Positions 49,511-51,981 of a stretch of DNA of 64,000 nt are shown one piece after another. The stretch spans positions 22,869-86,868 of the forward strand of contig JAJYLG010000004.1 in assembly GCA_021787985.1 (NCBI GenBank), in the 5' to 3' direction. Numbering within the stretch: position 1 is the first letter of the stretch; every line of letters starts with the position of its first letter. The DNA is from Chloroflexota bacterium. GTDB lineage: Bacteria; Chloroflexota; Dehalococcoidia; DSGV01. The notes beneath the pieces are model-generated. The model searched no databases. It saw only the letters and a program-made list of their open reading frames with translations, and was not told the DNA's origin. A program made the position numbers and the translations under genes.

Positions 49511-51355
49511 TCAGAACGCCCACGCGGCGCGGCGGAAGAGGCGGTTGTGGAACGTCTCGTACACGTCGTACGGGACACGGCTGCCGACGCGCGCCAGCAG
49601 CACGTTGGTCTCGGAGCCCATGATCTCCGGGTCGTCCGTCGGCTGGACGTCGAAGCCGTACTTGGCGAAGAGGCGGGAGAGCATGGTCCGATACTGGAAG
49701 GCGTTGAGCCCGCTGCCATCCAGGTCCCAGTGCCAGGTGTAGCCCAGCGCGACGAGGATGTAGTCTTCCACGTAATCGGCCGACGTGACGAATCGCAGCA
49801 GGTGCGAGGCCAGGTGCGTCCGGCGCCAGCCGGCGGCGATCTCGATCGCCACCTCGTACAGGCGCGGCACCGGGGCCCAGCGGCCCTCGGCCTCGGTCAT
49901 GCTCACGTGGCCGACGATCACGCCCTCCGGCGTGTGGGCGATGGTCAGGTTGGTGTCCGGCAGGCCGGCGATGTTGATCAGCAGCTTGTGCTCGCGATCG
50001 GGGCGGCGCATGAAGGCGCGCATGCCCGGGTCGATGTCGAGGCGCGCGACGAGCGAGGGTGGGGCGAGGTCGCGCAGGAAGGCTGGGCCCTTGGCCGTGT
50101 CAACGCGCTCGGTTCGTGACTGGGCCGCCGGTCGCTGCTCGGGCCAGCGCGGCCGATCCTGACCGGGCCAGGGGAAGGCGGTGCGAAGGAGGCCGGGGAA
50201 GGCGAACTCGCGCACCATCGCCACCTTGCCGCGGTTCTCGTCGACGATCTCGGGGTCGCGGGGGATCGGCGGTACGACCTCGGCGGGGTCGTCGAGGAAA
50301 CGCGCGGGCAGGGGGTCGGTCGCGAAGACCTGCCAGCGGTCGCGCCATGGCTCGGGGACCGTCTCCGGCCGGGGCTGGTGCGCGACCTCGGCCCAGACGA
50401 GGGTCCAGGCGCGTGGCACCACGCCCAGCACGTCGTAACCGCCACCGCCGAGCGCCAGCCAGCGGCCGTCGCAGTAGTCGTGCGCCAGCTCGTGCACGAG
50501 CTGCGCCGCGCGGGCGAAGGCGCTGGTGGTGAGGCGCAGGTGGCTGAGCGGGTCCCAGGCGTGACCGTCGCAACCGTGCTGACTCACGATGATGTCTGGC
50601 TGAAAGCGGGCTGCCAGGCCGGGCAGGATCGCCTCCACCGCCTCGACCCAGGAGTCGTCGGTGGTGAAGGCCGAGACGGGCATGTTGACGGCGTAGCCGA
50701 GGCCGGCGCCCACGCCCATCTCACGCAGGAAGCCAGTCCCCGGGAAGAGGTGCCGTCCGGTCTCGTGGATTGAGAAGGTCAGCACGCGTGGGTCGTCGTA
50801 GAAGGCCGCCTGGACGCCGTCGCCGTGGTGCGCGTCGAAGTCGACGTACAGCACCTTCCACTCGCGACGATGAACGAGGTCGGCGATGGCGACGGCGATG
50901 TCGTTGTAGATGCAGAAGCCGGATGCCCGTTCGGGTAGCGCGTGGTGCAGACCGCCGCCGGGACTGAACGCGTGGCCGCAGGCGCCCTCGGCGACCGCTC
51001 TCGCCGCGGCGAGCGAGGCGCCGACGATCGCCGCGGCGGCCTGGTGCATCCCCTCGAAGGCGGGGTTGTCGTCGCTGCCGAAGCCGTAGAGCTCGGCGAG
51101 CGCCTCGTCGTACGGTGGGCCCTCGCTCAGCTTCTGGACCGCGTCCACGTAGGCGGGGCGATGGACGAGCTCGAGCTCGTCGCGTGTCGCCAAGGTGGTC
51201 GTGAGGCGGCGTGGGTCGTCCGGGGCGAGCAGGCCGGCGTCCTCGAGCAGGTCCAGGAAGGCGCGCAGCCGCATCGGGTCGAGTGGGTGCTGCGCCCCGA
51301 AGTTGTAGTCGAGGATGGCCGGATTCCAGGCGAAGCAGGCGCCGTCGGCGGTCAT
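49511..51355 (-). CDS. Fusion of an AcuC-type deacetylase (histone deacetylase superfamily) with a C-terminal AcuA-type GNAT acetyltransferase
   Basis: Start MTADGACFAWNP at 51355. HDAC motifs GFCIYNDIAV, DFDAHHGDG, SQHGCDGH. C-terminal 200 aa align to the B. subtilis AcuA sequence as I recall it (LLINIAGLPD...VGHVS vs LVDIAGLPEG...VGYVT; YILVALGYTWHWDLDGSG...PTDDPEIMGSETNVLLARVG vs YIVMTTEYYWHWDLKGMK...ATDEPEISSHPANCLMARIG). The Arg/Pro-rich 84 aa at the ORF-track N-terminus were rejected. Confidence 0.75.
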   Translation of the reverse strand: MTADGACFAWNPAILDYNFGAQHPLDPMRLRAFLDLLEDAGLLAPDDPRRLTTTLATRDELELVHRPAYVDAVQKLSEGPPYDEALAELYGFGSDDNPAFEGMHQAAAAIVGASLAAARAVAEGACGHAFSPGGGLHHALPERASGFCIYNDIAVAIADLVHRREWKVLYVDFDAHHGDGVQAAFYDDPRVLTFSIHETGRHLFPGTGFLREMGVGAGLGYAVNMPVSAFTTDDSWVEAVEAILPGLAARFQPDIIVSQHGCDGHAWDPLSHLRLTTSAFARAAQLVHELAHDYCDGRWLALGGGGYDVLGVVPRAWTLVWAEVAHQPRPETVPEPWRDRWQVFATDPLPARFLDDPAEVVPPIPRDPEIVDENRGKVAMVREFAFPGLLRTAFPWPGQDRPRWPEQRPAAQSRTERVDTAKGPAFLRDLAPPSLVARLDIDPGMRAFMRRPDREHKLLINIAGLPDTNLTIAHTPEGVIVGHVSMTEAEGRWAPVPRLYEVAIEIAAGWRRTHLASHLLRFVTSADYVEDYILVALGYTWHWDLDGSGLNAFQYRTMLSRLFAKYGFDVQPTDDPEIMGSETNVLLARVGSRVPYDVYETFHNRLFRRAAWAF

Positions 51356-51981
51356 GCGGCCGGAAGCGGTTCGACGACCTCGACGCCGGGGACCTGCCGG
51401 AGCGCGGCGATGAGCGGCGCGGGGTGGATCGTCCCGACGCGGAGGAGGATGCGCCGCGGCTCGGTCGGCCGAGCCGGGCCGACAAGGAAGCTGTGCAGGG
51501 GCGCGCGGGAGGTGCAGAGCACGTCGACCACGCGGGGCAGCACGTCCGTCAGCCGGCCGACGCGGAGCTCGAGGCGGGTGCCCGGCTCCGTCAGCCCCAT
51601 CAGCCACACGAGGACGTGGAAGAGGTCACTCTCGGTCACGATCCCGGCGAGCTTGCCGTCCTCGATCACCGGCAGGCAGCCGATGTCGCGTTCCTCCATG
51701 ATGCGGGCCGCGTCCTCGATCGGGTCGAAGACGGTGACCGTCACCACCGGGCCGCTCATCGCCTCGCGGACCGGGCGGCGTGGTTCTCCGGCGGCGCCGT
51801 CAACGGCGTCGCCGAGGACGCGGGCGATGTCCCGGTCGGTGAGGACCGCGACCACCCGCTCGGCCTCGAGCACGGGCAGGTGGCGGAAGCGGCCGCGGCG
51901 CATCAGCCGCCGGGCCTCTTCGAGCTGTGTGTCGGGCGTCACGGTGACGACCTTACGTGTCATGATGTCGCGCACCAGCAT
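51352..51981 (-). CDS. CBS-pair domain protein, AcuB-like
   Basis: MLVRDIMTRKVVTV and GCLPVIEDGKLAGIVTESDL (two CBS motifs) plus an ACT-like C-terminus. Its stop overlaps the downstream fusion gene start (ATGA). Confidence 0.8.
   Translation of the reverse strand: MLVRDIMTRKVVTVTPDTQLEEARRLMRRGRFRHLPVLEAERVVAVLTDRDIARVLGDAVDGAAGEPRRPVREAMSGPVVTVTVFDPIEDAARIMEERDIGCLPVIEDGKLAGIVTESDLFHVLVWLMGLTEPGTRLELRVGRLTDVLPRVVDVLCTSRAPLHSFLVGPARPTEPRRILLRVGTIHPAPLIAALRQVPGVEVVEPLPAA

Follow-up and report, generated by a model that had tools for sequence, protein, structure and literature searches.

Can the enzyme that writes an acetyl group onto a lysine and the enzyme that erases it be held on one polypeptide, and on which protein would they act? 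This question is raised by a gene in the window (the whole stretch of 64,000 nucleotides of Chloroflexota DNA that was analysed here), which a sequence-only reading had described as a single 614-amino-acid ORF joining AcuC and AcuA. Such a frame is present and uninterrupted at 49511..51355 on the minus strand, where the ORF listing and the sequence give an ATG at 51355, 614 codons and a stop at 49511-49513. Although the mechanically called ORF is longer and opens with a GTG at 51607, the homologues agree with a start at the ATG. The ORF predicts a single polypeptide of ~67 kDa, and its AlphaFold2 model is confident over both domains (mean pLDDT 88.9, pTM 0.91). When this model was searched against the PDB with Foldseek, only HDAC chains were found (query-normalised TM ≤0.54), none of which covers both domains. 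Between the two halves lies a Pro/Arg-rich linker (50117..50182, minus strand, about residues 392-413) that is predicted to be disordered, with pLDDT <50 at residues 388-409. It is weakly conserved and carries indels between homologues, and no in-frame stop or plausible internal start codon is found when its sequence is read. A scan of 49100-52500 for promoters and terminators gave no match, nor did an Rfam search of the window.

The N-terminal half (50183..51355, minus strand, residues 1 to ~391) is predicted to be a class-I HDAC-like, zinc-dependent lysine deacetylase. The first ~400 residues had been read as an HDAC/AcuC deacetylase from motifs that are indeed present, DFDAHHGDG at residue 172 and SQHGCDGH at about residue 258, and the Pfam domain Hist_deacetyl (PF00850) matches residues 23-323 (nt 50387-51289, minus strand) with an E-value of 5.7e-88 over model positions 1-297 of 298. 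The catalytic His-His pair, the Asp/His/Asp zinc ligands and the catalytic Tyr are all kept, and none of H137, H138, D174, H176, D263 and Y307 varies among 120 homologues. Among single-domain PDB chains, phmmer ranks HDLP (1c3r), HDAC2, Rpd3 and HDAC8 best, and in Foldseek this half resembles HDAC8 and HDAC3 (target-normalised TM 0.84-0.88). By sequence and by model, the fold is class-I (HDLP/HDAC8-like) and not class-II. The more specific name AcuC rests on source names ("AcuC family") together with the conserved coupling to acuB.

The C-terminal half (49511..50116, minus strand, about residues 414-614 plus the stop) is predicted to be an AcuA-type GNAT acetyltransferase, here part of a 614-residue protein and not a stand-alone protein of ~210 residues. 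Generic Pfam GNAT models score below threshold on it (E 0.02-0.03), which is why databases list only PF00850 for the fusion protein and why its homology to AcuA had to be seen by comparison with solved AcuA chains. In this comparison the likeness to AcuA along the last ~200 residues, which the sequence-only reading had proposed, holds up: phmmer aligns the last 214 residues to 2q04_A (E 1.1e-27, chain residues 11-206 of 211) and to B. subtilis AcuA 9g7f_C (E 1.9e-22, residues 11-203 of 210), with blastp identities of 31-33% to solved Bacillus-type AcuA proteins. The YTWHWDLDG motif at about residue 539 and the PTDDPEI...LLARVG block are present too. An NCBIfam search with each half of the fusion found no match up to E 10, and current Pfam and NCBIfam annotation names only the HDAC half. 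The AcuA family is small: among 1.84 billion proteins it has 305 representatives at 50% identity.

Directly upstream lies acuB (51352..51981, minus strand), a 209-residue ORF with two CBS domains and an ACT domain. The sequence-only reading had seen here an AcuB-like CBS-pair gene coupled to the fusion by an ATGA overlap, and the product proves to be a full-length AcuB: Pfam finds two CBS copies (E 2e-33), phmmer matches query residues 2-203 to residues 2-205 of G. stearothermophilus AcuB 9s4w (E 1.1e-26), and the solved AcuB chains 9s4v and 9qs7 (B. subtilis) match over their full length, including the ACT domain, at E about 1e-25. Of the Bacillus AcuB residues, R33/H34 at the nucleotide site and D89/E92 at the interface with AcuC are retained, while the active-site plug Met188 is Ile185 in the window, a conservative change. 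The overlap itself (51352..51355, minus strand) places the acuB TGA (51352-51354) over the ATG of the fusion (51353-51355), in the sequence ...gccgcATGAccgcc... The junction between acuB and acuC in B. subtilis is an identical ATGA (PMC13039410), and in related loci start and stop overlap by 4 nt or, most often, 8 nt. By this overlap acuB is coupled in translation to the fusion.

What such an operon would do can be proposed from the Bacillus systems. All three modules are homologous over their full length to AcuABC of Bacillus subtilis and Geobacillus, which acts on AcsA, with catalytic and key regulatory residues kept, and the acuB-acuC ATGA coupling is common to both. The differences are that AcuC and AcuA are separate proteins there and one polypeptide here, that the gene order is acuA-acuB-acuC there and acuB-acuC::acuA here, that the divergent neighbour is acsA there and a cupredoxin gene here, and that the hosts are Bacillota and Chloroflexota, respectively. 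By analogy, the operon probably encodes a single-chain writer and eraser of the active-site lysine of the AMP-forming kind of acetyl-CoA synthetase (Acs), gated by AcuB. As in Bacillus, the AcuA module would bind the C-terminal domain of Acs, lock the enzyme sterically and, given acetyl-CoA, acetylate its catalytic lysine, and the AcuC module would strip the acetyl group off again. The ACT domain of AcuB, once AcuB is loaded with an adenine nucleotide, would plug the active site of AcuC, with Ile185 in place of Met188, so that energy charge would decide whether the net action of the fusion is that of writer or eraser. The mechanism of AcuB has been described for Bacillus-type systems (PMC13039410, PMC13121692); according to one of these two studies Ap4A strengthens the inhibition by AcuB, according to the other it abolishes it. 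In the fusion the opposing activities would be fixed at 1:1 on one scaffold, and one regulator (AcuB) and one substrate (acetyl-CoA) would set the direction.

The order of the two halves fits this picture in one respect. In B. subtilis the last eight residues of AcuA enter the CoA site of AcsA, and loss of seven of them weakens the complex (PMC11910552); the AcuC-AcuA order leaves the AcuA C-terminus free, which fits such a tail insertion. In the model the tail of the fusion (residues 611-614) is free and flexible after a conserved F602/R605/L606 helix, and in sequence it cannot be aligned to the tail of the Bacillus protein. A further reading, to which we give somewhat less than even odds, is that in AcuC::AcuA nature has a switch for lysine acetylation on a single chain, with writer and eraser both active on the same Acs lysine, and that with dimeric AcuB it would work in an (AcuB)2-(AcuCA)2-Acs assembly whose direction is set by energy charge and acetyl-CoA without dissociation. 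The ~10% of family members that bear Gln at the general base would then be evolutionary intermediates in which the steric clamp alone is left.

In the active site of the AcuA module, E505 of the fusion aligns with E102, which is the general base in B. subtilis AcuA, R511 with R108, and W541-H542-W543-D544 with the WHW-D motif at residues 138-141, all with described roles (PMC11255334). An alternative explanation is that the module serves chiefly as a clamp on Acs, with weak catalysis or none, which would make the fusion a targeted deacetylase combined with a steric inhibitor; the AcuA module would either bring AcuC to Acs or sequester newly deacetylated Acs. Acetyl transfer by B. subtilis AcuA is lost with E102Q (PMC11255334), and this position is occupied by Gln or Ala in 12 of the 120 relatives, so acetyl transfer is not under universal selection in the fusion family; furthermore, B. 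subtilis AcuA inhibits AcsA even without acetyl-CoA or E102 (PMC11910552). Against this, E505, R511 and the WHWD residues are kept in the window's protein and in 108 of the 120 relatives. The window's copy also deviates in the R-x-x-G-x-A/G acetyl-CoA loop, having His514 where 111 of the 120 relatives have Gly, but genuine AcuA proteins of Bacillus and Exiguobacterium likewise lack Gly at the equivalent position. A docking module could help AcuC, since pull-downs show no binding of AcsA by B. subtilis AcuC on its own. However, Bacillus AcuA binds non-acetylated AcsA and lets go of the acetylated form, so that docking would be to the product of AcuC and not to its substrate, and the tether is not obviously helpful to AcuC in finding its substrate. 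Taken together, a clamp with little or no catalysis is unlikely, at perhaps one chance in a handful, and a writer joined to an eraser is the reading that we prefer.

Slightly less likely still is a different client: instead of Acs specifically, the fusion would control acyl-CoA synthetases of other kinds or a wider range of proteins. An acs gene adjoins the operon neither in the window nor in 78 of 80 related loci, so that it is by homology that the substrate is assigned. The genes that flank the operon in the window encode an acetyl-CoA hydrolase/transferase and an enoyl-CoA hydratase, other proteins, TufA among them, are also substrates of B. subtilis AcuC (PMC13039410), and the two or three copies of the fusion held by some genomes suggest specialisation. 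On the other hand, the flanks are not conserved among relatives and so tell little for or against any client, AcsA is the sole characterised client of the small AcuA family, and in the remaining two of the 80 loci (L078 and L082) a bona fide acetyl-CoA synthetase lies directly upstream of the fusion on the same strand. These two proteins have ACAS_N, AMP-binding and AMP-binding_C domains and end in ...PKTRSGKIMRR... An AMP-forming acyl-CoA synthetase near position 1203 of the window, which had been put forward as a plausible substrate, was dropped as evidence: it lies 48 kb away, is 29% identical to true Acs, and is incomplete, as it is on the minus strand and leaves the left end of the window, with the C-terminus and the would-be target lysine outside. 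Acs as the client, acted on by both halves, is the reading carried forward here.

The fusion is far from confined to the window, whose protein is identical to the database protein P0001. Related genomes, to which the sequence-only reading had pointed, hold it as well: a scan of GTDB species representatives found AcuC and AcuA in one uninterrupted frame in 66 of 80 loci, three further loci being interrupted by contig ends, and acuB lies directly upstream in 57 of these 66 (and in all five contexts taken from gene calls). More than 100 homologous protein clusters have the AcuC-AcuA architecture, with lengths of 580-720 residues and coverage of 96-100% of the fusion; the best 120 database matches are all 579-718 residues long, and nearly all of them cover 96-100% at 46-59% identity. 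Genomes of cultured Ktedonobacteria are included: complete or draft ones come from the cultured Ktedonosporobacter, Thermosporothrix, Thermogemmatispora, Tengunoibacter, Ktedonobacter and Ktedonospora. The genome scan used an alignment of five sequences (A2), one of 14 (A1) being too divergent to serve, and its two peptide patterns favour close relatives, so the Chloroflexota-only distribution is a lower bound and no proof of absence elsewhere. The hidden stop or frameshift that the earlier reading had considered is excluded by comparison, as the single frame recurs at 46-59% identity. That a sequencing or assembly error, or a pseudogene, made one ORF of two adjacent genes is exceedingly improbable: the window does come from a metagenome assembly, and the frame breaks within the gene in four of the 80 loci (L013, L028, L050, L066), but it is continuous in the 66 independent species genomes, finished and isolate genomes included, the architecture recurs across the clusters, only some 20 residues separate AcuC from AcuA, without intergenic signals or an internal start codon, and the model is confident over both domains.

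The fusion is thus real and evolutionarily conserved, both halves retain their catalytic residues, and it is the normal form of the acu system in much of Chloroflexota. The architecture, called unusual in the sequence-only reading, is not unique to the window. JGI labels both halves, and public databases hold the protein under poor names. No description of a natural AcuC-AcuA fusion was found in the openly available literature searched, where it appears to be undescribed.

We know of no earlier single-chain writer/eraser of lysine acetylation, and the literature searched showed none. Bifunctional writer/erasers of other modifications are known, such as the adenylyltransferase/removase GlnE, the uridylyltransferase/removase GlnD, the kinase/phosphatase AceK and HprK/P, in which opposing activities also share one polypeptide and direction is set by small molecules or a partner protein. 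They differ from AcuC::AcuA in that the chemistry here is acetylation, the folds are unrelated and the switch, AcuB, would act in trans. Among the multidomain lysine acetyltransferases of bacteria, Pat/PatZ/YfiQ (with an NDP-forming acyl-CoA-synthetase-like domain) and the cAMP-, NADP- and ACT-domain GNATs likewise have an additional domain, by which the output of a GNAT acting on acyl-CoA synthetases is modulated. In these enzymes the partner domain is regulatory or ligand-binding (PMC6456759), whereas in AcuC::AcuA it is an opposing catalytic enzyme.

The teamwork of AcuA, AcuB, AcuC and AcsA is under active study, and the four structural and mechanistic papers of 2024-2026 all deal with Bacillus-type systems of separate proteins. 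A conserved fusion provides independent evolutionary evidence that AcuA and AcuC serve the same client in one assembly, and it extends the reach of the acu system from Bacillota to Chloroflexota. With writer and eraser inseparable, one must also ask what prevents a futile cycle that consumes acetyl-CoA, and gating by AcuB becomes directly testable. As an object of fixed stoichiometry, possibly thermostable in Thermogemmatispora and Thermosporothrix, the fusion may suit cryo-EM of the still unsolved AcuB-AcuC-AcuA-AcsA assembly.

Other fusions of the AcuA domain were also seen, one with a CBS pair (P0162) and one with a GAF domain and a sigma54 activator (AcuA-GAF-sigma54, P0187). As in AcuC::AcuA, the AcuA module is joined in both to another component of acetate/acetoin regulation; unlike there, it is N-terminal and is paired with a sensor or a transcription factor and not with a deacetylase.

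On the reverse strand of the window, a 614-aa ORF (acuC::acuA, 49511..51355) encodes an AcuC deacetylase followed by an AcuA acetyltransferase in one chain, directly downstream of a 209-aa AcuB ORF (51352..51981, same strand). The TGA of the shorter ORF overlaps the ATG of the longer one in an ATGA tetranucleotide that can be read in the sequence, as has been described for acuB-acuC in B. subtilis (PMC13039410). In a mechanical ORF list the 614-aa frame reaches back to a GTG at 51607, but homologues share the ATG at 51355 as their start, and all 614 aa are identical to those of database protein P0001. 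The ~71% G+C of the window leads to long spurious ORFs on other frames, from which the real ones are told by homology evidence. No internal start codon was found in the sequence near the AcuC/AcuA junction.

Judged by sequence comparison, the fusion is real, and the architecture as described here (a single AcuC-AcuA chain with acuB coupled to it) is close to certain. It is conserved, and is already in the databases under incomplete names. When 5.8 billion proteins were searched with the fusion, the best 120 matches considered were all 579-718 aa long, and nearly all aligned with the fusion over 96-100% of its length (46-59% identity); JGI names some of them "AcuC-like enzyme/GNAT superfamily N-acetyltransferase". 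The sequence-only reading had proposed looking for the same fusion in related genomes, and it is indeed found there. The AcuA half was scanned against a single genome for each GTDB species, which gave 80 loci; 66 of these have AcuC and AcuA homology in one uninterrupted frame. These include the isolates Ktedonosporobacter rubrisoli (complete chromosome), Thermosporothrix hazakensis, three Thermogemmatispora species, Tengunoibacter tsumagoiensis, Ktedonobacter sp. and Ktedonospora formicarum. The other 14 comprise three loci cut by contig ends, four with frame breaks, six with a stand-alone AcuA and one undetermined. The frame-broken loci (L013, L028, L050 and L066) come from MAGs, with the break inside the acuC part, and are either sequencing errors or pseudogenes. 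Nearly all record titles of the 80 loci name Chloroflexota (Ktedonobacteria or Dehalococcoidia); because the scan patterns are biased to close relatives, this distribution is a lower bound.

An AlphaFold2 model of the fusion, based on a 72-sequence alignment (mean pLDDT 88.9, pTM 0.91), has two confident domains, a disordered Pro/Arg-rich connector between them (aa 388-409) and a flexible end of four residues. The AcuA homology begins at the equivalent of Bacillus AcuA residue 11, so that the two proteins are joined almost head to tail. The earlier assignment of both halves is borne out. The Pfam histone-deacetylase model is covered in full by residues 23-323 (E 5.7e-88), and the best single-domain matches among solved structures are class-I enzymes (Aquifex HDLP, HDAC2, Clr6/Rpd3 and HDAC8); HDAC8 and HDAC3 superpose with the model at a target-normalised TM of 0.84-0.88. 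The HDAC catalytic residues H137, H138, D174, H176, D263 and Y307 are invariant or nearly so in the 120 homologues, and on every feature tested the module belongs with AcuC-type class-I HDACs. For the last 214 residues, a generic GNAT model stays below threshold (E 0.02) and an NCBIfam search gave no match. Only two AcuA proteins have solved structures, 2q04 from Exiguobacterium and 9g7f chain C from B. subtilis; the segment aligns with both from end to end (E 1.1e-27 and 1.9e-22, 31-33% identity), and groups with AcuA on the homology and residues tested.

The upstream ORF had been read as an AcuB coupled to the fusion, and both points hold. Its alignment with AcuB structures released in 2025-26 (9s4w, 9s4v and 9qs7; E ~1e-26) spans the entire protein and takes in the ACT domain, and the protein agrees with AcuB in all tested respects. 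Of the 66 full-length loci, 57 have an AcuB-like gene immediately 5' of the fusion, as do all five contexts taken from gene calls; the overlap is typically 4 nt, or 8 nt of the ATGnnTGA/TAA type. The window's AcuB retains the Bacillus residues R33, H34, D89 and E92; R33, D89 and E92 are also kept in a few Dehalococcoidia-type relatives. With a median of 243 aa, ktedonobacterial AcuB-like proteins (upstream genes of L009-L086) are longer, and most of these Bacillus residues are replaced in them (R33 by His, D89 by Thr, E92 by Ala). Met188, which in Bacillus plugs the AcuC active site (PMC13039410, PMC13121692), is replaced by Ile in the window's AcuB and in 64 of 65 AcuB-like proteins.

Bacillus AcuA and non-acetylated AcsA, the acetyl-CoA synthetase, bind tightly in an intertwined complex in which the C-terminal 8 residues of AcuA sit in the CoA site of AcsA; with acetyl-CoA, AcuA acetylates Lys549 and the complex dissociates (PMC11910552, PMC11255334). 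AcuC takes the acetyl group off again, and is bound and inhibited by AcuB through its ACT domain, depending on the nucleotide in the CBS pair (PMC13039410, PMC13121692). By homology, the fusion would carry both activities on an Acs-type client, its writer half driven by acetyl-CoA and its eraser half gated by AcuB; we regard this full reading as somewhat favoured. The order AcuC-then-AcuA would be expected if the AcuA C-terminus has to stay free. The sequence data establish the domain architecture, how well it and the key residues are conserved, and the operon coupling; client, activities and regulation are inferred from Bacillus. In the chief competing explanation, the AcuA half serves mostly as a docking module or clamp. 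R511, W541, H542, W543 and D544 are invariant or nearly so in the 120 homologues. At E505, counterpart of the B. subtilis general base E102 (PMC11255334), there are 108 Glu, 11 Gln and one Ala. The 12 Gln/Ala homologues, ~10% (P0014, P0016, P0024, P0033, P0034, P0036, P0038, P0049, P0050, P0069, P0086 and P0106), retain the R108 and WHWD counterparts and a fully intact HDAC site. They fit the clamp reading, for themselves, and may be natural "binding-only" variants, because B. subtilis E102Q AcuA transfers no acetyl group (PMC11255334) yet still inhibits AcsA sterically (PMC11910552). The window's own copy, however, retains Glu. It is also the sole one of the 120 with His at position 514 (codon 49814-49816), where 111 of them carry Gly as part of the R-x-x-G-x-A/G acetyl-CoA loop; the position is Ala or Gln in the bona fide AcuA proteins of Bacillus and Exiguobacterium.

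No acetyl-CoA synthetase gene was found adjoining the acu pair in the window. The AMP-binding, acyl-CoA ligase-like ORF near 1203 (1-1254, reverse strand), which the sequence-only reading assigned to a plausible substrate class, gives no evidence for a client: it lies 48 kb away, is cut by the left window edge with its C-terminal lysine motif outside, and has only 29% identity to Acs. In two related loci, both second fusion copies in their genomes, an acs gene immediately precedes the acu genes in the same orientation: at 2-1615 in L078, followed by acuB-acuC::acuA, and at 459-2453 in L082, followed by acuC::acuA without acuB. Both are bona fide, with ACAS_N, AMP-binding and AMP-binding_C domains and the ending ...PKTRSGKIMRR.... 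The window's pair has a divergent cupredoxin gene beside it, a convergent enoyl-CoA hydratase just downstream (48366-49229, forward strand) and an acetyl-CoA hydrolase/transferase 2.4 kb upstream (54362-55687, reverse strand). Such flanking genes, acyl-CoA context included, are not conserved among related loci.

Enzymes that both write and erase a modification are well known in adenylylation, uridylylation and phosphorylation; for lysine acetylation, none was found described in the openly accessible full-text literature. That search, recent acu papers included, found no mention of an AcuC-AcuA fusion, and the family is apparently uncharacterised. On the features tested, the modules belong with AcuA, AcuC-type class-I HDACs and AcuB, but the locus departs from the acuABC operon, which has three genes in the order A-B-C and a divergent acsA. 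In known multidomain bacterial acetyltransferases the partner domains are regulatory (PMC6456759), whereas here the partner is the opposing enzyme. A conserved single-chain deacetylase-acetyltransferase is notable and experimentally attractive for the field of bacterial protein acetylation, although the functional link of the parts was known before, genes for pathway partners are often fused, and nothing here points to new chemistry.

The AcuA family is small (305 representatives at 50% identity), and several of its clusters are AcuC-AcuA fusions. Other fusions have AcuA at the N-terminus: with a CBS pair (P0162, 387 aa), with GAF, sigma54 AAA+ and HTH domains in an AcoR-like activator (P0187, 719 aa), and with a Glu/Leu/Phe/Val-dehydrogenase-like domain (P0186, 669 aa). 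The six stand-alone paralogues (L062, L074, L080, L081, L084 and L085; ORFs of 220-316 aa) are from Chloroflexota MAGs and one MAG labelled Actinomycetota. No AcuC or AcuB was found near them; their neighbours are unrelated (alpha/beta hydrolase, Cys/Met PLP enzyme, LuxR-NB-ARC-TPR regulator, IS66 transposase). Searches of the window for tRNAs and Rfam families gave no match at gathering thresholds. A dnaA gene (10709..12313, forward strand) has DnaA_N, Bac_DnaA and Bac_DnaA_C domains; the best named relatives of its product, from Dehalococcoidia/Chloroflexota MAGs, reach <=48% identity, and the window probably comes from a Chloroflexota lineage with poor sampling. Around 24-28 kb the GC skew changes sign (negative to positive), and together with dnaA this suggests that a replication origin may be close by.
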